Of a stretch of 13,131 bases of DNA, positions 1 through 12,306 are shown piece by piece (position 1 is the first letter of the stretch; the number at the start of each line of letters is the position of its first letter). The stretch lies in the IMG/VR virus record IMGVR_UViG_2703719355_000018. The stretch is one strand, 5' to 3'. This DNA comes from a virus (lineage: Duplodnaviria > Heunggongvirae > Uroviricota > Caudoviricetes). The position numbers were made by a program, and so were the translations under genes. The notes under the pieces are model-generated. The model saw only the letters and a list, made by a program, of their open reading frames with translations. It made no database searches and had not been told where the DNA came from.

Positions 1-1260
1 ATGGCAAAGCTGACAGATATCCAAATCAAGTCATGGATTAAGGCAGGAGAGCGCTTCGAGGGGCGCTCTGACGGCAACGGGCTATACCTTCGCTATCGAG
101 CGGGGGATAAAGTACCTGTATGGCGTTTTCGATATCAGTTCGCTGGGAAATCACGGGTAATGCTTATTGGATCTTATAGCGAAATATCCCTTTCCAAAGC
201 ACGGGAAATAGCCAAGGAATTATCCGCACGTGTAGCCCTGGGCTTCGATGTCGCCGGGGAAAAGAAAGCGCGAAAAGCGGCTGCTATAGAAAAGATGGAG
301 CGGGAGAAAAACGCGCTTCGTGTGTCAGAGCTAGCAACCGAGTATTTCGAACGGCAGATTTTGGGACGCTGGAAACATCCCGATCTTCTGCGCCGGAGAA
401 TCGATAAGGATATCAACCCACATATTGGCAACATGAAGATAGAGGACGTAAAACCCCGTCATATTGATGCGATGCTACAGAGCGTTGTTGATCGTGGCGC
501 TCCAACCGTAGCTAATGACGTTCTGCGCTGGACTAAACGCATATTCGATTATGCTATCAAGCGTCATGCACTGGAATTAAACCCAGCTGGAGCATTTGAT
601 CTGTCAGACGCTGGCGGGCAGGAAAGTAGCCGTATGCGCTGGCTGACCCGTGAAGAACTTATACGTTTTTTCCAAGCTATGCGCACTGCAAAAGGATTCA
701 GCCGCGAGAACGAGCTGACCATGAAGCTAATCCTTTGCCTGTGTTGTCGCAAAATGGAGCTGTGCGGTGCTCAGTGGGATGAATTCGACCTTGATGAAGC
801 AGTGTGGCATCTACCAGCAGAACGCGTTAAAAACGGCGACGCTATTGATATACCACTACCTCCACCTGCGGTTGGTTGGTTGAGAGAGCTTCGCACTATC
901 GCGGGCAGTGGGAGTAAATGGGTTCTCCCCGCGCGGAAGATGCAACACCGCATGATTCCCCACATTCAGGAAAGCACACTCCCCGTGGCGCTGGCAAAAG
1001 TACGCCGCGAAATGCCAGAAGTACCAAACTTCACAATTCACGATTTCAGACGTACCGCCCGCACCCATTTAGCGGCGTTGGGTGTCGATCCCGTAGTCGC
1101 AGAACGTTGCCTGAATCACCGCATTAAAGGCGTTGAGGGTATCTACAACCGCCACCAGTACTTTGAAGAACGACGGGCAGCCCTGGAACTGTGGGCGGGG
1201 CTTCTGGTTTCGCTTGAACGAGGGGAAAACTACAATGTTATTCCTTTATCTAAAATATAA
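1..1260 (+). CDS. int: Tyrosine recombinase / integrase, P4 family (419 aa)
   Basis: ORF begins at window position 1. N-terminal arm-binding-like region (GNGLYLRYRAGDKVPVWRFRY) and C-terminal catalytic region with HDFRRTARTH and YNRHQY typical of P4-type integrases. Confidence 0.93.
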   Translation: MAKLTDIQIKSWIKAGERFEGRSDGNGLYLRYRAGDKVPVWRFRYQFAGKSRVMLIGSYSEISLSKAREIAKELSARVALGFDVAGEKKARKAAAIEKMEREKNALRVSELATEYFERQILGRWKHPDLLRRRIDKDINPHIGNMKIEDVKPRHIDAMLQSVVDRGAPTVANDVLRWTKRIFDYAIKRHALELNPAGAFDLSDAGGQESSRMRWLTREELIRFFQAMRTAKGFSRENELTMKLILCLCCRKMELCGAQWDEFDLDEAVWHLPAERVKNGDAIDIPLPPPAVGWLRELRTIAGSGSKWVLPARKMQHRMIPHIQESTLPVALAKVRREMPEVPNFTIHDFRRTARTHLAALGVDPVVAERCLNHRIKGVEGIYNRHQYFEERRAALELWAGLLVSLERGENYNVIPLSKI

Positions 1261-4618: not shown

Positions 4619-5731
4619 CTATTTAACTAAACGTAAATGTGACGGGCGTATCCCCGATTCCTGGGTACTCGATTTTCCACCATTGATAGCTTCCATAAAG
4701 AAGCTGTTACTGAAAGTAAGTGCACTCACTTCGTCCGCTGGTAACCTCAACTGCTCGAGAATATCTCCCCTTTTAACGCCTTTGCTGCGTAGGGCTGAAA
4801 ACACTTTATCCAGCACTAATGACTTTTCACGTTCAGCAATCCCTTGAGGCTCACTCGTACGATATCCACGGCGAGCAAGTTCTATCGATAGCTGTCGATA
4901 ATGCCATTCGGTAGATAAACCGACATCAAACGTACGGCGCACCAAAGCCGCCAATGATACCCGCCAGTTCTTTTTTAACGAGATGAGTAGATCAAGCGAT
5001 GGCATTCTTGGCACTAAAGCTAAAATACTACGCTCAGGCATCAAAAAGGCCGATGCGAATCGATCTGCATCCTGCTCAGCTTGGCGGCCGTTGTTAGTTG
5101 AATGTTTATGGAGAACCAAGTGCCCCAGTTCATGAGCTGCATCGAATCGACTACGCTCCGGCGTTTTCATTGTATTCAAAAGCACAAAAGGTTTTTCATC
5201 CATCCAGAACGAAAAGGCGTCTACTTCAATACAATTTTCCGCGAGAGAGAACACACGGACCCCATTAGCTTCAAGAAGATGGACCATGTTAGAGATGGAT
5301 AATTCACCTATCCCCCAACTTTCTCTAACCACGCGAGCAGCTCGCTCAGGCTCAGAATAACCATCGAAACTACAATCAGGTACATTAGGTTTAGGAAGCT
5401 TAAACTGCCCGTCAATCCAAGCTGATAGCTCTTGCGCGAGCTTTCCGGCTCCGAGTGCTGAGTCCCTTTTCTGTGCCGTCAACTTTGTCATTGCACGGAA
5501 ACTAACGGCTTCTGGCGACAGAGTAGGTACATCCCTGTCGAAGAAGAACTCAATCGGATAGCCCAGAACAGCAGAAATCCGTTCCATGGTATCGCTGGCT
5601 ATGGCATCAAAAATCCCTGCTTTCTCGTAATTCGAAATCGTCTTACTAGTCAATTCTGTAGCTTCAGCTAAAGCTCTTTGTGTCAGGCCTCTCCGTTCTC
5701 TGGCTATACGTAAACGCTCTGAATTAAACAT
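4619..5731 (-). CDS. Fused XRE-family HTH / ImmA-IrrE (COG2856) zinc metallopeptidase regulator (370 aa)
   Basis: N-terminal HTH (LRIARERRGLTQRALAEATELTSKTISNYE); HExxH as HELGHLVLH, followed by the family-typical FASAFLMPE segment. Confidence 0.85.
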   Translation of the reverse strand: MFNSERLRIARERRGLTQRALAEATELTSKTISNYEKAGIFDAIASDTMERISAVLGYPIEFFFDRDVPTLSPEAVSFRAMTKLTAQKRDSALGAGKLAQELSAWIDGQFKLPKPNVPDCSFDGYSEPERAARVVRESWGIGELSISNMVHLLEANGVRVFSLAENCIEVDAFSFWMDEKPFVLLNTMKTPERSRFDAAHELGHLVLHKHSTNNGRQAEQDADRFASAFLMPERSILALVPRMPSLDLLISLKKNWRVSLAALVRRTFDVGLSTEWHYRQLSIELARRGYRTSEPQGIAEREKSLVLDKVFSALRSKGVKRGDILEQLRLPADEVSALTFSNSFFMEAINGGKSSTQESGIRPSHLRLVK

Positions 5732-5740
5732 GGTGCATAT

Positions 5741-6460
5741 TTAGCCTGTTTTTAAAATGTCGAGATCGATATCCGGTGTAAACTGCGGTACATCACCGTT
5801 CTGAACAATAGGGTCAGGTTGATGAGGAGCAATAATTAAACGTGTGGAGAAGGCATTAACTACATTCTTGTTATTGTATGAAATCGGGCGTGAAAGCTCA
5901 GCTCGGATCCCCACGCGCTCATCCCCGTCAATTTCATAAAAATCGTAAAGTAAAAACCATAAGTCCAGTCCGATTTTATTCGGTAGCAGTGGTATAACAT
6001 CACCTTCCGGCATGTCTAAATCCAGCTTAAGCTGGCTATCATCCAGGATAAGCTCACCCTGACCCGGGGTGTTATTATGGATTAACCCCATCAGCTCACA
6101 AGTAAAATCACCTTTCTTCATGCGAGACTCAGGAAATCCATGAACCAAACCTGTCTGATCACACCCCCGGCAGAGGTAAAGGGCAACTTTATCACTTACA
6201 GTCAGTTCAACATTTCGCAGAGACAGACGTTTGTAGCCTTTCGGAGCCAGAATGTCGCGGGCTGCACTCACCCCCTCACCATAGAAATATTGCCCACGTG
6301 AGGTCTTGGGGTGATTCTGAGTCGTCGAATAACGACCAGACAAGCCACGCTCAAGAATACGCCTGAGATCACTTTGGCTCAGATTCAGGGACTGCAGGTA
6401 GGATTCAACATCGTCAGGATCTGCCAAAACAATGGTTTTTGCGAGATTATGAGAGTACAT
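5741..6460 (-). CDS. Hypothetical protein (239 aa), first gene of a two-gene operon with the HTH-ImmA regulator; candidate effector/toxin
   Basis: AAGAGG RBS 8 nt upstream of the ATG; stop lies 9 nt before the downstream start; no family recognised. Confidence 0.65.
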   Translation of the reverse strand: MYSHNLAKTIVLADPDDVESYLQSLNLSQSDLRRILERGLSGRYSTTQNHPKTSRGQYFYGEGVSAARDILAPKGYKRLSLRNVELTVSDKVALYLCRGCDQTGLVHGFPESRMKKGDFTCELMGLIHNNTPGQGELILDDSQLKLDLDMPEGDVIPLLPNKIGLDLWFLLYDFYEIDGDERVGIRAELSRPISYNNKNVVNAFSTRLIIAPHQPDPIVQNGDVPQFTPDIDLDILKTG

Positions 6461-6526: not shown

Positions 6527-6542
6527 CTGTATAAAATCTCAG
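6527..6542. promoter_or_regulatory. LexA-like box CTGTATAAAATCTCAG (CTG-N10-CAG) in the divergent intergenic region
   Basis: Left half matches the LexA consensus CTGTATAT; right half keeps only CAG. Confidence 0.3.
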
Positions 6543-6666
6543 AGATAATCGACAGATTAGAGAGTATTATCCATATTGAGGCTATCCCGACGGGGAGAAA
6601 AGCGACTACGCCTTGCCGCCTGCCTCCCCCATTATCTCAAGGCGGTGACGTGTAAGGCGAACGTGC

Positions 6667-7485: not shown

Positions 7486-7546
7486 CCCCGGAACATTCCA
7501 TATATTCCGACGCATTAGAATATTCCAGAGCCCATCACCATAACCT

Positions 7547-7584
7547 TGCGATTACCTTCTCACTCAATAGCAGGTAATCGCATG
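7547..7584 (+). promoter_or_regulatory. Stem-loop covering the alpA ribosome-binding site and start codon
   Basis: 10-bp inverted repeat TGCGATTACC (7547-7556) / GGTAATCGCA (7573-7582), 16-nt loop; the 3-prime arm contains the AGGT SD-like motif and the A of the ATG. Confidence 0.5.
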
Positions 7585-7794
7585 AAATCGCAAACTTTCA
7601 CCTTTCCCACCAATGGCAACGCACGAGCCAAACAAGTGGCGCACTATCTTGGAGTGCATATCAGCACCGTATGGCGCTATGCAAAACGTCCTGATTTTCC
7701 AAAACCCCACCAGTTAACCGACGGCGTGACCGTCTTTGACGCCGCAGCTATTCGCCAATGGAACAAGCAAAAAACCGGGGGTGAGAATGCTTAA
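7582..7794 (+). CDS. alpA: AlpA-family transcriptional regulator / excisionase-like protein (70 aa)
   Basis: VAHYLGVHISTVWRYAKRPDFPKP matches the AlpA/phage-excisionase HTH signature; start taken at the internal ATG at 7582 rather than 7546. Confidence 0.85.
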   Translation: MKSQTFTFPTNGNARAKQVAHYLGVHISTVWRYAKRPDFPKPHQLTDGVTVFDAAAIRQWNKQKTGGENA

Positions 7795-7848
7795 CGCGAC
7801 CGTGAGCACACCCTGCACGACAGCCGTTCGATCGCCATTGTTGGCGAG

Positions 7849-7983
7849 TCAGGTTTTCGGCTCAATACCTACGTTAAGTAGCTTTTCCCGGCAGGCATCT
7901 TTAACCCATGAGCTGAAATTACCTTTACCCGCAGCAGCATTTATCTGCTTTAAAAGTTCATCCTCAAAGCGGATGTGCTTCAT
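7849..7983 (-). CDS. Ribbon-helix-helix (Arc/CopG-like) putative repressor (44 aa; alternative start at 8031 gives 60 aa)
   Basis: MKHIRFEDELLKQINAAAGKGNFSSWVKDACREKL has a strand-helix-loop-helix layout; divergent from the replication operon across a region with twin palindromes. Confidence 0.45.
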   Translation of the reverse strand: MKHIRFEDELLKQINAAAGKGNFSSWVKDACREKLLNVGIEPKT

Positions 7984-8031
7984 GGTGCTACCCGAACGGT
8001 CAAACGGTTTTTTTTCACTTTTACCTTGCAT

Positions 8032-8078
8032 TGGTAACTACCACTCATATAATGAACCAAAGCATGGTAACTACCATG
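8032..8078. promoter_or_regulatory. Two copies of palindromic operator TGGTA-AC-TACCA (8032-8043; 8065-8076, extended to CATGGTAACTACCATG at 8063-8078) flanking a TATAAT (8047-8052)
   Basis: Read directly; lies between the divergent RHH gene and the replication operon; possible -35 TTGCAT at 8026-8031. Confidence 0.55.
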
Positions 8079-8170
8079 CGCGATTTTATCAAGAGATAAA
8101 TACAGCGAAGCCCGGCAGTGCGGGAACACTAACCGGGCCTCTGACCAACAACGTTACGGAGACTAACGCT

Positions 8171-8371
8171 ATGGCTAAGCCGCAGTGTACCCAAACTCAC
8201 CCCAAATATCAGTATCGTTTTATGGCGCTCGATCGCGCTGACCGTCAGGCGAAACCCTGCAAAATCATTGTCGAGGCCACCAGCGAGCACGAAGCGCGTA
8301 AAGTGCTGGCTCCTCACTACATCCTGTCACTGTCCGCCGTTTTGCCAGTTCAGGAGGTGAGCCATGTTTAA
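8171..8371 (+). CDS. Small hypothetical protein (66 aa), first gene of the replication operon
   Basis: GGAG RBS 9 nt upstream; stop overlaps the next start. The 211-aa ORF from 7736 is rejected. Confidence 0.45.
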   Translation: MAKPQCTQTHPKYQYRFMALDRADRQAKPCKIIVEATSEHEARKVLAPHYILSLSAVLPVQEVSHV

Positions 8372-8558
8372 CGTCATTGTCACGGTCACCTATCACTTTT
8401 CGGGAACGATCCGTCGTTTTGCTATTCCGGAACGTTTCAATAATCGTGAGCTCGCAGAGAAAGCGGCGCAGCAGTTAACCCATACCAGCTATCTGGATGA
8501 TGGAGTGAGCAGAATTGTGACCCACGCGGCGGAAGTAGTGGAGGTGCGCCATGTATGA
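8364..8558 (+). CDS. Small hypothetical protein (64 aa)
   Basis: AGGAGG RBS 6 nt upstream; start overlaps upstream stop (ATGTTTAA) and stop overlaps the next start. Confidence 0.6.
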   Translation: MFNVIVTVTYHFSGTIRRFAIPERFNNRELAEKAAQQLTHTSYLDDGVSRIVTHAAEVVEVRHV

Positions 8559-8739
8559 CGCCTACCTGAACCCAAAGGACGCACTCCGTCCGATCGCCGT
8601 TGCACTCGAGGCTGCGCAGTTTATCGCGCTTGACCCGGAGAATACCGATTTAGCCCATGAGCTGATCGCCTGGGCACTTGAAACAGCCGCGCGTGCCTCA
8701 GCTGCGCAACGTAACACCCCGGAGGTGGACAATGCTTAA
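8551..8739 (+). CDS. Small hypothetical protein (62 aa)
   Basis: GGAGG RBS 7 nt upstream; coupled to both neighbours. Confidence 0.6.
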   Translation: MYDAYLNPKDALRPIAVALEAAQFIALDPENTDLAHELIAWALETAARASAAQRNTPEVDNA

Positions 8740-9040
8740 TCTCAATACATGGAATCTTTTCACGCTGCCGCTGAACGGTGGCGCAGCTGAGACAGCGCCG
8801 GACGATCTGCGTCTGCTGGCCGCTGTGGGGGACGAGGCTCGCAACGACTACCTGCGCGGTGTAAGCGCCATCGGCAATCTGATCTTCTGGGCATGTGATA
8901 ACCCCAACTACACCGACCATCAAGCTGACCTGCCAGCGCTGGGCGCATTCCTGAAACATACCGCTGATATGGCGCGCGCTGCCGAATTCATGGCAGGACA
9001 TCTGGACTCACTGGCTGACGGCAAAGAGGGAGGCAAATAA
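8732..9040 (+). CDS. Hypothetical protein (102 aa)
   Basis: GGAGG RBS 6 nt upstream of the ATG at 8732; start overlaps the previous stop (ATGCTTAA); the 8678 start is rejected. Confidence 0.6.
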   Translation: MLNLNTWNLFTLPLNGGAAETAPDDLRLLAAVGDEARNDYLRGVSAIGNLIFWACDNPNYTDHQADLPALGAFLKHTADMARAAEFMAGHLDSLADGKEGGK

Positions 9041-9261
9041 TGCCACGCAAACATCGCTCATCAAGCAACCTGATCAAATTAATGGAACGCCAGAAAGGTA
9101 TAGGGCGCGACGATATCCAGATCGCAGATAATCGCCCTACATTCATGCCGTACGAGCCGAACGGAACCTACGCTACAAACCGCCATACCCGCCGTATGCT
9201 ACGCAAGCTCCACGGCATCCAGGCAAAAAGAATGTGTGATCTGAAAGGAGGTCAGAAATGA
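9040..9261 (+). CDS. Small basic hypothetical protein (73 aa)
   Basis: GAGGGAGG RBS; start overlaps the previous stop (TAATG); stop overlaps the primase start (ATGA). Confidence 0.55.
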   Translation: MPRKHRSSSNLIKLMERQKGIGRDDIQIADNRPTFMPYEPNGTYATNRHTRRMLRKLHGIQAKRMCDLKGGQK

Positions 9262-11672
9262 GTGGATTCGATCACCTGATGGAGCAGGGGCAGAAACGCA
9301 CCCCTGCTCGTTTTACTGCAAATAGCTTTTCTGACCTGTGCAACGCTATTCTATCGCATCGTGTGCAAATTTCCATCACACAGGAAATGACGGATGAAGA
9401 ACGGCGCAAAGAAAAGCAGAAACTGTACTGGTTCTCGGCAACTACCCAGCAGGACGGGCAGCGACGTAAACCCGAAAACATGGCACCGTGTGCTTTCGGT
9501 ATGCTGGACATTGACGGCAGCACTCCCGGTGCAATCACAGCACTTGTACAGGTGTTCCGGCGATACTCAATGCTGGTGTACCAGACGGCCAGCTATACGG
9601 CGGATGAACCTCGTCTGCGTATTGTGTGCGAGCTTTCCCGAGCGGTTGAATCTGACTACCGCCGAGCGACAGGCGAATCCATAGAAACTTTGTTGATGCA
9701 GGAGGCTGGATTCTCATTCGCCAGCCTGGCGGATAAGAAAGCACGCTGGGAGAACGGCAGCGATTATGTTGTCTTTGACCGCAATGTATACGGCGCTCAA
9801 AGCTATTGCTACTGTCCACACACTGGAGCGAAAGCCCAGAATTACGCGGGCGCGGTAATCGACGTAGGGGCGTTACCGGAACCCGCCCAGCCACCAGCGA
9901 AGGCGGCCAAAAGCAAGGCAAAGAAACAGCGCCAGCGTGACGCCGCGGCGGTAATAGATGCTGATTTTGACGATCTGAGCGCCGGACCGGATAACTTCCT
10001 TATCGCCGACCTGCGCAGCGCACTCTGGTTTCCCTCCATGCTGCAAAAGGCATGGGACAATGGGGCGTGGATTGAGCAGGGCTACCGCCTTGCATCTCTC
10101 AAAGGCACCGATTTTGAGGACGACGCGCGGCAACTGTGGGTCGAGTGGTCATTGACCGCAGCGGATGGCTGGCCTGATGAAGAACTTGATGAAGTCGCGG
10201 CACAACGCTGGAATGGTCTCGCCCCTGACAAAACCAGCTATAAAGCTATTTTTACTGATGCTCAGGCGCAGGGGTGGAATAATCCGGGCAAATGGCGAGC
10301 AAAGGCCGCGTACATTGAGAAAATGGCCCCCAGCACACGCGGTGAACTGCTGGCGCAATATTACGGCAACGTATGCCTGAAAGCTGATGGCAACATGGTT
10401 TATCACTATACCGGGCAGGGGTGGGAGCACATCGCCGATGCCGAGTTGCGCCGCCAGCTTTCGCAGATTTTCAAAGATAACGGGGTCCCCTTTACACCGT
10501 ACGAGGTTAAAAGCGCGATTGAGGCTATGGGAATGCTTCTGCCTTTAATAGGAGAAACTCCTCGTAACCTGATTGGCTTTGCCAACGGCGTTTATGATCT
10601 CGAGGCGCAGCGATTCCGCCCCCACTGCCCAGACGATTGGCTGACCAGCCATAACGGCGTTGAATACACGCAGCCGGTTAAAGGCGAAACCCTGAAAAAC
10701 AATGCCCCAAACTTCTGGCGCTGGCTGCATCATTCCGCAGGGGGCGACTTCGACAAAATGGAGAGAATCAAAGCCGCTCTGTATATGGTGCTGGCAAACC
10801 GCTACGACTGGCAACTGTTCATCGAGGTTACCGGTGCTGGTGGCAGTGGTAAAAGCGTGTTCACGGGTATTGCACGTATGCTGACGGGCGAACTACACGC
10901 CACCAGCGGCACAATGGAGGACATGGACACCGCGCGCGAACGCGCATCTTTTGTCGGAAAAAGCCTGATCACCCTACCCGACCAAGCAACATATACGGGT
11001 TCCGGGCCGGGTATCAAGGCTATAACGGGCGGCGACGTGGTAAGGATCGACCCAAAGCACGAAAAGCCATTCCATACGGTTATTCGCGCCGTTGTCATCG
11101 CAACAAACAACGAACCTATGCGTTTCACCGAACGACAAGGCGGGATATCGCGGCGCCGGGTTATTTTCCCGTTTAACCATGAAGTGCCGGAGGCGGAACG
11201 TGATCCCCATCTGCTCGATAAAATTAAAGCCGAACTGCCGGTAATCGTCCGTGGTCTGCTGATTGACTTCGAACAGCCAGGCAAAGCCAAATCGCTACTT
11301 ATCGCGCAGCGTGATTCAGCGGAAGCGCTGCAGGTGAAGAACGATAACGACCCGATGTATGGCTTTTGCTCTTACCTGCTAGGTTTGCCGAATCCCGAGG
11401 GCATGTACATGGGCGATGGGCGCATGGCGCGAGAGCCACGCATCTACCTCTATCATGCTTATCTGGCCTATCTGGAAGCCTACGGTTATCAGAGAACCCC
11501 CACCCTACCGAAGTTCAGCGGAGATTTACGGGACACGCTCAAAGCCTTTGGTATTACTCTGGACAGTAAAAAGAGTAAAAAGGGCAAAAGATATAACGTC
11601 AATTTGTCTGACAGGGCACAAGAATGGCTGGGAGAAGACGAACTCTCAGCTGTGCCCGACACATTGCAGTAA
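9258..11672 (+). CDS. DNA primase-helicase, P4 alpha-like phage/plasmid type (804 aa)
   Basis: Walker A GAGGSGKS followed by a P-loop NTPase region (VVIATNNEP) in the C-terminal half; size and position after alpA as in P4-like elements; AGGAGG RBS. Confidence 0.88.
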   Translation: MSGFDHLMEQGQKRTPARFTANSFSDLCNAILSHRVQISITQEMTDEERRKEKQKLYWFSATTQQDGQRRKPENMAPCAFGMLDIDGSTPGAITALVQVFRRYSMLVYQTASYTADEPRLRIVCELSRAVESDYRRATGESIETLLMQEAGFSFASLADKKARWENGSDYVVFDRNVYGAQSYCYCPHTGAKAQNYAGAVIDVGALPEPAQPPAKAAKSKAKKQRQRDAAAVIDADFDDLSAGPDNFLIADLRSALWFPSMLQKAWDNGAWIEQGYRLASLKGTDFEDDARQLWVEWSLTAADGWPDEELDEVAAQRWNGLAPDKTSYKAIFTDAQAQGWNNPGKWRAKAAYIEKMAPSTRGELLAQYYGNVCLKADGNMVYHYTGQGWEHIADAELRRQLSQIFKDNGVPFTPYEVKSAIEAMGMLLPLIGETPRNLIGFANGVYDLEAQRFRPHCPDDWLTSHNGVEYTQPVKGETLKNNAPNFWRWLHHSAGGDFDKMERIKAALYMVLANRYDWQLFIEVTGAGGSGKSVFTGIARMLTGELHATSGTMEDMDTARERASFVGKSLITLPDQATYTGSGPGIKAITGGDVVRIDPKHEKPFHTVIRAVVIATNNEPMRFTERQGGISRRRVIFPFNHEVPEAERDPHLLDKIKAELPVIVRGLLIDFEQPGKAKSLLIAQRDSAEALQVKNDNDPMYGFCSYLLGLPNPEGMYMGDGRMAREPRIYLYHAYLAYLEAYGYQRTPTLPKFSGDLRDTLKAFGITLDSKKSKKGKRYNVNLSDRAQEWLGEDELSAVPDTLQ

Positions 11673-12245: not shown

Positions 12246-12261
12246 CTGTATATAAATACAG
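12246..12261. promoter_or_regulatory. LexA (SOS) box CTGTATATAAATACAG upstream of dinD
   Basis: Exact CTGT-N8-ACAG consensus, 45 nt upstream of the dinD start; dinD is a known LexA-regulated gene. Confidence 0.85.
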
Positions 12262-12306
12262 TTACAGATTTACTTTCTTTGCAATCGATATCACATGGAG
12301 TGGGCA

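Follow-up and report, generated by a model that had tools for sequence, protein, structure and literature searches.

Twin palindromes beside a divergent DUF3950 gene are probable operators of an Arc-like repressor in a primase-encoding island of Escherichia coli

Arc of phage P22, encoded in immI, is a small ribbon-helix-helix (RHH) protein with an N-terminal arm; its dimer of dimers occupies a single 21-bp operator, which lies between the −35 and −10 elements of a promoter it represses; the promoters overlap (Pant/Pmnt), Arc is negatively autoregulated, and its gene is co-transcribed with ant. The base-contacting side chains in the Arc–operator crystal structure are Gln9, Asn11, and Arg13. 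CopG (pMV158) is an autoregulated RHH repressor of a replication-initiator operon, of which its own gene is the first, and it binds cooperatively to one 13-bp pseudo-palindromic element at the −35 region of the promoter. The symE/symR locus of E. coli K-12 is a LexA-repressed type I toxin–antitoxin locus. In Gram-positive phage-inducible chromosomal islands (PICIs), among them the Staphylococcus aureus pathogenicity islands (SaPIs), a divergent repressor (Stl or Rpr) beside the xis/replication operon keeps the island quiescent and is released by helper-phage proteins (PMC6092414). According to Fillol-Salom et al., the global repressor of Gram-negative PICIs is unclear and AlpA is an activator (PMC6092414). 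Here we analyzed a stretch of 13,131 nucleotides (the IMG/VR virus record IMGVR_UViG_2703719355_000018, Caudoviricetes; hereafter the window), in which a 12-bp palindrome occurs twice between a divergent gene of the DUF3950 (YlcI/YnfO) family and an operon that runs from a host cell division inhibitor-like (Icd-like) gene to a P4-type primase-helicase gene. Sequence comparisons make it probable that these palindromes are the operators of the 60-aa Arc-like RHH product of the divergent gene and that this protein represses the icd-to-primase operon.

Like P22 Arc, the window protein is a small RHH protein with an N-terminal arm, it is linked to Arc by profile matches, and its residues 17, 19, and 21 correspond to Gln9, Asn11, and Arg13. 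The placement of an operator between (here candidate) −35 and −10 elements, the overlapping promoters, and probably the negative autoregulation are likewise shared. Different from Arc, the window contains two separate 12-bp palindromes 33 bp apart and a divergent repressor gene, and its protein has an arm twice as long and a conserved C-terminal GIEPK tail, with low and indirect identity to Arc. CopG offers a parallel in the type of operon controlled, but no sequence relationship between CopG and the window protein was detected in this analysis. Similarly, Stl and Rpr are comparable in their divergent position and are not relatives of the window protein. The features on which the comparison rests are as follows.

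8032–8043, no strand: op1, TGGTA-AC-TACCA, exact match, abutting the RHH start codon and filling the P(+) spacer
8062–8079, no strand: op2, core 8065–8076, extended form GCATGGTA-AC-TACCATGC, overlapping the −10 element of P(−)
8026–8053, plus strand: candidate promoter P(+) of the icd-to-primase operon (matrix score; position kept in relatives)
8064–8092, minus strand: candidate promoter P(−) of the RHH gene (consensus scan)
7849–8031, minus strand: DUF3950 (YlcI/YnfO) Arc-like RHH gene, 60 aa (PF13132, NF041551, alignments, AlphaFold2 models, profile matches)
8171–8371, plus strand: Icd-like gene, first of the operon (NCBIfam NF033153, 64.8 bits; RefSeq annotation of the relative L001)
8364–8558, 8551–8739, 8732–9040, and 9040–9261, plus strand: four small overlapping open reading frames (ORFs) of the operon (ORF list, overlapping stops and starts)
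9258–11672, plus strand: P4-type D5 primase-helicase, end of the operon (Pfam D5_N, DUF5906, Pox_D5; TIGR01613)

An earlier note on this DNA, made from the sequence alone, had described the palindrome TGGTA-AC-TACCA as occurring twice, about 33 bp apart, on either side of a TATAAT, with one copy in the spacer of a candidate promoter and the other downstream of it, and every part of this description was confirmed. Exact copies of TGGTAACTACCA are present on the plus strand at 8032–8043 (op1) and 8065–8076 (op2 core), with a start-to-start distance of 33 bp and TATAAT at 8048–8053 between them. Each copy is a 5+2+5 inverted repeat, the central AC of which is not palindromic, and at op2 the palindrome extends to 8+2+8. 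Allowing up to two mismatches, both strands of the window yielded five matches to TGGTAACTACCA versus 0.59 expected, a count reached in none of 200 dinucleotide shuffles; the sole near-match elsewhere in the window (805–816) is at chance level. The extended op2 together with GCGATTTTAT (8062–8089) was scored as terminator-like on both strands. An op2-specific extension of the palindrome, up to 9+2+9, occurs in many relatives, in which the U-run is not conserved.

The candidate promoter P(+) consists of TTGCAT (8026–8031), a 16-bp spacer filled by op1, and TATAAT (8048–8053), which would place the transcription start near 8060 and the op2 core at approximately +5 to +16. In a weight-matrix scan, P(+) was the top plus-strand promoter of the window (12.0 bits), and its counterpart at an unchanged position also ranked best on the plus strand in nearly all relatives. 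Its −35 element is the reverse complement of the codons for Met1 and Gln2 of the RHH protein, both of which are invariant, and the invariance of Gln2 may be explained by this double use of its codon. A candidate promoter P(−) for the RHH gene was recognized in a consensus scan as TTGATA (8092–8087), 17 bp, and TACCAT (8069–8064), the last lying inside op2. Among the relatives printed by the matrix scan, 19 repeat the geometry TTGnnn-17-TACCAT, and the best minus-strand candidates of the remaining ones lie just to the right of op2.

The divergent gene belongs to DUF3950, with scores of 39.2 bits for PF13132 (cut-off 25) and 35.4 bits for NF041551 (cut-off 30). Its product is predicted to comprise a basic N-terminal arm (residues 1–16), a strand (17–22), and two helices (24–34 and 39–54). 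The earlier note had assumed a protein of 44 aa, and this size has to be corrected. Among 37 homologues, the N-terminal 16 residues are conserved, with Met1, Gln2, Lys7, Arg12, Ser15, and Thr16 invariant, but position 17 varies, with K, A, R, T, V, or S in place of Met. We therefore rejected a start at the ATG at 7983 and take the product to be 60 aa in length, starting from the ATG at 8031 directly beside op1. Because the full protein carries the conserved basic arm, a gel shift with the 44-aa fragment would probably fail.

The relationship of this family to Arc was established through profiles. The family profile (A2) matched the profile of a second cassette protein, that of the E. coli E2348/69 type (A4; hhalign 97.5%, E = 7.8e-12), and A4 in turn matched P22 Arc (1b28_A, E = 2.3e-4). 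Arc was also the best Protein Data Bank (PDB) match of the merged profile A7 (E = 0.016), followed by weaker matches to the RHH antitoxin 7e4j, NikA (2ba3), and a de novo designed helix bundle. Since a PDB profile search with the YlcI-type alignment alone (A1) returned only a spurious match, the link between DUF3950 and Arc is transitive, and it is by this route that the family is related to solved structures of the RHH (MetJ/Arc) superfamily. In hhalign and profile alignments, residues 17, 19, and 21 align with Gln9, Asn11, and Arg13 of Arc, and Arg21 is invariant. No functional study of DUF3950, YlcI, or YnfO, nor of an RHH repressor of Gram-negative PICIs, was found in the searchable literature. 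DUF3950, which is present in K-12 (ylcI and ynfO) and in many satellites, thus gains a likely and testable function as an Arc-like, operator-binding repressor.

YlcI (DLP12) and YnfO (Qin) of K-12 belong to the same Pfam and NCBIfam family and share the arm-strand-helix-helix pattern, but their genes adjoin cos/nohD in lambdoid prophages. No twin TGGTA..TACCA was found upstream of K-12 ylcI (L065:6252–6850), and the operator layout is therefore not generalizable to the lambdoid members. Other palindromes, TTGAT-GCAG-ATCAA and ATGATAAT-T-ATTATCAT, occur in the DLP12 cos/nohD region beside ylcI.

Conservation of the sites was assessed in 61 genomic loci and 55 viral contigs (many of 10–16 kb) that encode relatives. 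Two 12-bp sites were identified beside the same divergent gene in 93 non-redundant loci, the first of them 2–3 bp from the start codon, and the twin-site layout is conserved over at least 30 genera with diverged flanks. The distance between op1 and op2 is 33 bp in 53 loci, 34 bp in 37, 35 bp in 3, and 28 bp in 4; counted per locus, 89 of 93 fall within 33–35 bp. The information content reaches 1.7–2.0 bits at GGT..ACC, 0.5–1.1 bits in the center, and mostly 0.1–1.0 bits in the drifting flanks, a pattern that fits a protein-binding site. The centers of op1 and op2 are alike in 78 of 93 loci, suggesting that both sites evolve in concert. The orientation of asymmetric centers varies, with AC/AC in the window but GT/AC or GG/CC in other loci, as should be the case if the binder is a symmetric dimer. 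Two loci (L047 and L063) carry a single hybrid operator and have lost the −10 element of P(+), a state that recombination between op1 and op2 could have produced; they probably represent decayed copies.

For 86 of 93 loci, the central hexamer of op2 can be predicted from residues 17 and 19 of the RHH protein, a performance equaled by none of 5000 permutations. The classes, given as residues 17/19, center, and number of loci, are listed below.

M/N: TACCTA, 36 loci
K/N: TACGTA, 18 loci
M/H: TAACTA, 14 loci, including the window
A/N: TATATA, 7 loci
R/T: T(T/G)CGAA, 5 loci
R/I: TATG(C/A)A, 5 loci
R/Q: TACG(T/G)A, 4 loci
S/I: TATAAA, 2 loci
V/N: TACATA, 1 locus

With Asn19 fixed, residue 17 is associated with GG/CC when it is Met, CG when it is Lys, TA when it is Ala, and TG/CA when it is Val. 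The classes thus form a natural recognition table, with a change of one residue going together with a change of one central base pair.

A second line of evidence comes from closely related islands of E. coli. One relative (L001) is 97.6% identical to the window, and the island of E. coli E2348/69 (L003) is 97% identical on both sides of a swapped stretch, in which L003:3250–3500 replaces window positions 7870 to approximately 8106 with unrelated-looking sequence. Between L003 and L001, the Icd-like and downstream proteins are identical and AlpA is 99–100% identical, yet the palindromes are unrelated. The L003 cassette encodes a protein of 64 aa that matches the PHROG annotation ‘Arc-like repressor’ and, weakly, HicB; its intergenic region contains the palindromes GTACCTATT..AATAGGTAC and ACCTTAACATGTTAAGGT, and its promoter (TTGACA-18-TAAGAT) likewise overlaps its start codon. 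A third E. coli island (L002) carries TGGTACGTACCA twice, 33 bp apart, together with a protein having Lys17 and Asn19. Three specificities are therefore represented in one species, namely the AC center of the window, the CG center of L002, and the alternative cassette of L003, and only the small gene changes together with the sites, which argues that AlpA, the Icd-like protein, the primase, or a host factor is not the binder. The left junction of the swap lies within the C-terminal tail, which is common to both cassette proteins as GIEPK(G/A/T) (window 7849–7869; alignments A4 and A7). This shared tail could be an interaction or degradation signal.

From these comparisons we infer how the protein would bind, in what stoichiometry, and how repression, autoregulation, and response to an inducing signal might be achieved. 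The simplest interpretation, modeled on MetJ and its 8-bp boxes, places a single dimer on each palindrome. A two-stranded beta-ribbon would enter the major groove at the center of each palindrome, where residues 17 and 19 would read the central bases; the outer GGT/ACC, which never varies, would be held by the invariant Arg21 together with the basic arm of 16 residues. Protein bound at op1 and op2 would exclude RNA polymerase from P(+), thereby silencing the Icd-like gene, the four small ORFs, and the primase and keeping the island quiescent. Both proposals of the earlier note, that the divergent RHH protein is the binder and that it holds the replication operon silent, are thus favored by the layout in 93 loci, the covariation of residues 17 and 19 with the sites, and the joint cassette replacement in E2348/69, with repression deduced from this comparative evidence. 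The RHH protein would also limit its own synthesis: op2 holds the −10 element of P(−) and op1 lies in the 5′ leader of the RHH gene, and in every relative transcription of the RHH gene has to pass through the operators, which makes negative autoregulation likely. The protein is accordingly a candidate quiescence repressor for Gram-negative PICI-like islands.

The leader between op2 and the Icd-like start codon appears to provide another form of control, for which two features were recognized.

approximately 8095–8176, minus strand: SymR-like cis-antisense RNA covering the ribosome-binding site and start codon of the Icd-like gene
8184–8212, minus strand: candidate antisense promoter within the first codons of the Icd-like gene, with CTGATA (8212–8207), 17 bp, and TACACT (8189–8184)

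This leader is conserved as hairpin 1 (8107–8141) followed by a 5-bp stem with the Shine–Dalgarno sequence in its loop (8151–8169). In the antisense RNA, the complement of 8151–8169 forms a 5′ hairpin with an anti-Shine–Dalgarno loop, and the complement of 8107–8141 forms the 3′ hairpin. The only Rfam match of the leader is SymR (RF01809), on the minus strand, with 30.5 bits in the window and 34.8 and 31.2 bits at the same place and strand in L002 and L046; since the gathering threshold of 61 bits is not reached, we call the RNA SymR-like and do not assign it to the Rfam family. Folding is more stable for the minus strand in 35 of 35 relatives (mean −28.9 vs. −20.1 kcal/mol), compensatory changes were identified at 12 of the 18 consensus pairs of the leader hairpins, and, of 47 non-redundant loci, 35 have a minus-strand TAnnnT at ATG+13 to +18 (TACACT in the window). 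The SymR match, the folding, the paired changes, and the −10 motif together suggest a functional RNA on the minus strand, which would add a second, post-transcriptional layer to the control of the operon. Hairpin 1 is a hotspot of variation: its top (GTG..CAC) is inverted on the same stem between L001 (TGTGTTGCGAGCAC) and L003 (GTGCTCGCAACACA), and the stem of the window differs again.

All elements of the SymR-type architecture can be recognized, including a predicted antisense RNA over the ribosome-binding site and start codon, a candidate promoter within the ORF, a pair of hairpins, and a structure specific to one strand. In an alignment by eye, the leader proved homologous to that of K-12 symR, which also has a hairpin with a GTG..CAC top, the Shine–Dalgarno sequence in a small hairpin loop, an antisense −10 element (TAGAAT) at the same ATG+13 to +18 offset, and two layers of control, one transcriptional and one antisense. 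In K-12, the symR promoter lies inside the symE ORF and its −10 element has been validated by mutation (PMC1891008). The two loci differ in payload, which is an Icd-like-to-primase operon in the window, and in the repressor. At K-12 symE/symR (L066:2500–2912), the homologous leader comes with a LexA box and with neither RHH gene nor operators, whereas the window and the symE loci of Enterobacter, Citrobacter, Leclercia, and others have a divergent DUF3950 RHH gene with twin operators. LexA control of the K-12 type was rejected for the window because no SOS box was found near 8000–8200 and the only perfect box belongs to dinD.

P4 CI and P1 C4 provide a further parallel, with RNA control in a leader before an Icd/Kil-type first gene and an operon ending in a P4-type primase; the window differs in that its RNA is a SymR-type cis-antisense RNA and a protein repressor is also present. 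A C4 (RF01695)/isrK immunity RNA was considered for the leader and discarded, since the covariance models gave no match at gathering score in the window or 16 relatives and, under relaxed settings, none at E ≤ 10 in 7500–8700 and none at E ≤ 5 in 8 relatives.

The combination of RHH gene, twin operators, and SymR-like RNA is not confined to primase operons. The largest group of relatives, from Enterobacter, Citrobacter, Leclercia, and others, has a SymE toxin gene behind the combination (PF08845, E = 7e-15), and these symE-linked loci (L022–L056; e.g., L026:3531–3968, minus strand) adjoin tRNA-Sec and GmrSD. The first ORFs behind the combination in L001–L060 are unrelated to one another, comprising Icd-like proteins, SymE, a 176-aa family, and a 113-aa family, and they share the N-terminal motif MAxxxST, which coincides with the antisense −10 element (ATG+13 to +18; window 8171–8200). 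The simplest explanation for this shared motif is that the embedded antisense promoter constrains it. The same arrangement before unrelated payloads points to a portable, two-layered control. Mobile islands, in their replication operons, thus have a symER-type antisense leader in common with a chromosomal toxin locus. Kawano et al. noted RHH or helix-turn-helix (HTH) genes in operons with some symE homologues, as well as primase-helicase islands, and did not describe a divergent DUF3950 gene combined with SymR.

On this basis we tentatively advance a broader and speculative reading, in which the RHH gene, twin operators, and SymR-like RNA might constitute one portable cassette of interchangeable specificity, with at least nine operator classes and a second, Arc-like cassette type. 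Its payloads would be the Icd-like-to-primase operons of satellites, symE toxins, and two ORF families of unknown role; in satellites it might serve as master repressor, and a helper phage or a protease might use the GIEPK tail as a handle to relieve repression. If true, the cassette would be the ‘missing’ master repressor of one class of Gram-negative PICI-like satellites. The mechanism itself is of a familiar kind, and the new parts are the function of DUF3950, the clean recognition table, and the link between satellite quiescence and symER.

Several observations weigh against the proposal that the RHH protein represses P(+) from the twin sites. The covariation classes are mostly clades, so that the independent changes number approximately 9–10 rather than 93; even so, each of them entailed matching substitutions in the two half-sites of op1 as well as of op2. 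Three Buttiauxella loci have two center types under one protein type. The −35 element TTGCAT agrees with TTGACA at only three of six positions, and P(+) was omitted by a simple promoter scan that required at least 4/6 in the −35 element; in the matrix scan, the position of P(−) was not conserved in the symE-linked group. Structurally, AlphaFold2 monomer models showed an extended N-terminus and helices at 24–34 and 39–53/54 but no strand, with moderate confidence (predicted local distance difference test scores of 65.6 and 69.4); a Foldseek search with the first model returned Arc as its sole match without significance (E = 8.1), and other fold searches gave nothing useful.

These points have to be set beside what other explanations would leave unaccounted for. 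That the repeat is a functionless chance duplication can be practically dismissed: only the small size of the motif speaks for it, whereas the observed count was absent from all 200 shuffles and the layout persists over at least 30 genera despite diverged flanks. It is also highly improbable that the sites serve another binder, such as AlpA, the Icd-like protein, the primase (as origin iterons), or a host regulator. AlpA (7582–7794) is a DNA-binding regulator and a known activator in Gram-negative PICIs (PMC6092414), and the Icd-like protein matches PHROG families labeled ‘transcriptional repressor’; yet L001 and L003 share these proteins and the downstream ones with unrelated palindromes, only the small divergent gene changing with them, three specificities coexist in one host species, the site center covaries with residues of the RHH protein, and the single additional near-match in the window is at chance level. 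An RNA or DNA hairpin function, with op2 as a 5′ stem-loop or early terminator and op1 as a translational element of the RHH mRNA, would draw on the terminator-like score of extended op2 with GCGATTTTAT, on the U-run that follows op2 in several relatives, and on the position of op1 where a Shine–Dalgarno sequence is expected. We nevertheless consider it very unlikely, as the 5+2+5 structure of op1 is too short for a stable RNA hairpin, most relatives lack a U-run after op2, and the identical sequence of both copies, the invariance of GGT..ACC, and a center that tracks two residues of a protein would be left unexplained.

A different question is what the RHH protein controls once it is bound. 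Its role might be antitoxin-like, directed at a toxic first gene (Icd-like or SymE), rather than that of a master switch of replication, with replication controlled elsewhere, for example by AlpA or a helper phage. The cassette precedes symE toxin genes without a primase in at least 25 loci, a SymR-type antisense RNA (a type I antitoxin) always accompanies it, and HicB-family antitoxin is a frequent name for the protein of the alternative cassette. A type II toxin–antitoxin system, in which the antitoxin is co-transcribed with the toxin, does not agree with the arrangement in the window, where the RHH gene is divergent and monocistronic and the convergent alpA ends at 7794. Moreover, in the window and its primase-island relatives the primase lies 1.2–3.7 kb downstream on the same strand behind ORFs that are translationally coupled, and the scanned stretch 7500–8700 yielded no further strong promoter, so that silencing of P(+) would also silence the primase. 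We regard a purely antitoxin-like role as possible but somewhat doubtful; such a role and the control of replication are not mutually exclusive.

The surrounding element is an island of approximately 12 kb between yicC and dinD of E. coli, and relatives of it were found on IMG/VR contigs of 10–16 kb. Additional features are listed below.

1–1260: integrase
6575–6642, plus strand: int-alpA RNA motif (RF02996; 41.1 bits, above the gathering score)
7582–7794: AlpA, convergent with the RHH gene

Integrase, AlpA, and primase occur in the order that is canonical for Gram-negative PICIs. No packaging or capsid-redirection (late) genes were identified in the window, in which the primase ends at 11672 and host dinD starts at 12295, and the element is therefore better described as a PICI-like or primase island than as a full PICI. 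The int-alpA RNA is located upstream of a 272-aa ORF and alpA and is also present in L001, L003, and L004. A perfect LexA box (CTGTATATAAATACAG, 12246–12261) precedes dinD, as expected for this gene. Upstream of the int-alpA RNA/alpA unit, a LexA box with one mismatch (CTGTATAAAATCTCAG, 6527–6542) would fit SOS induction of AlpA, its frequency being at chance level. The variable cargo contains a Rosmer anti-phage defence pair on the minus strand (4619–6460), consisting of RmrA (4619–5731, HTH and ImmA/IrrE peptidase, E = 6e-151) and RmrT (5741–6460, E = 1e-52); the cargo of L001 at this place is different.

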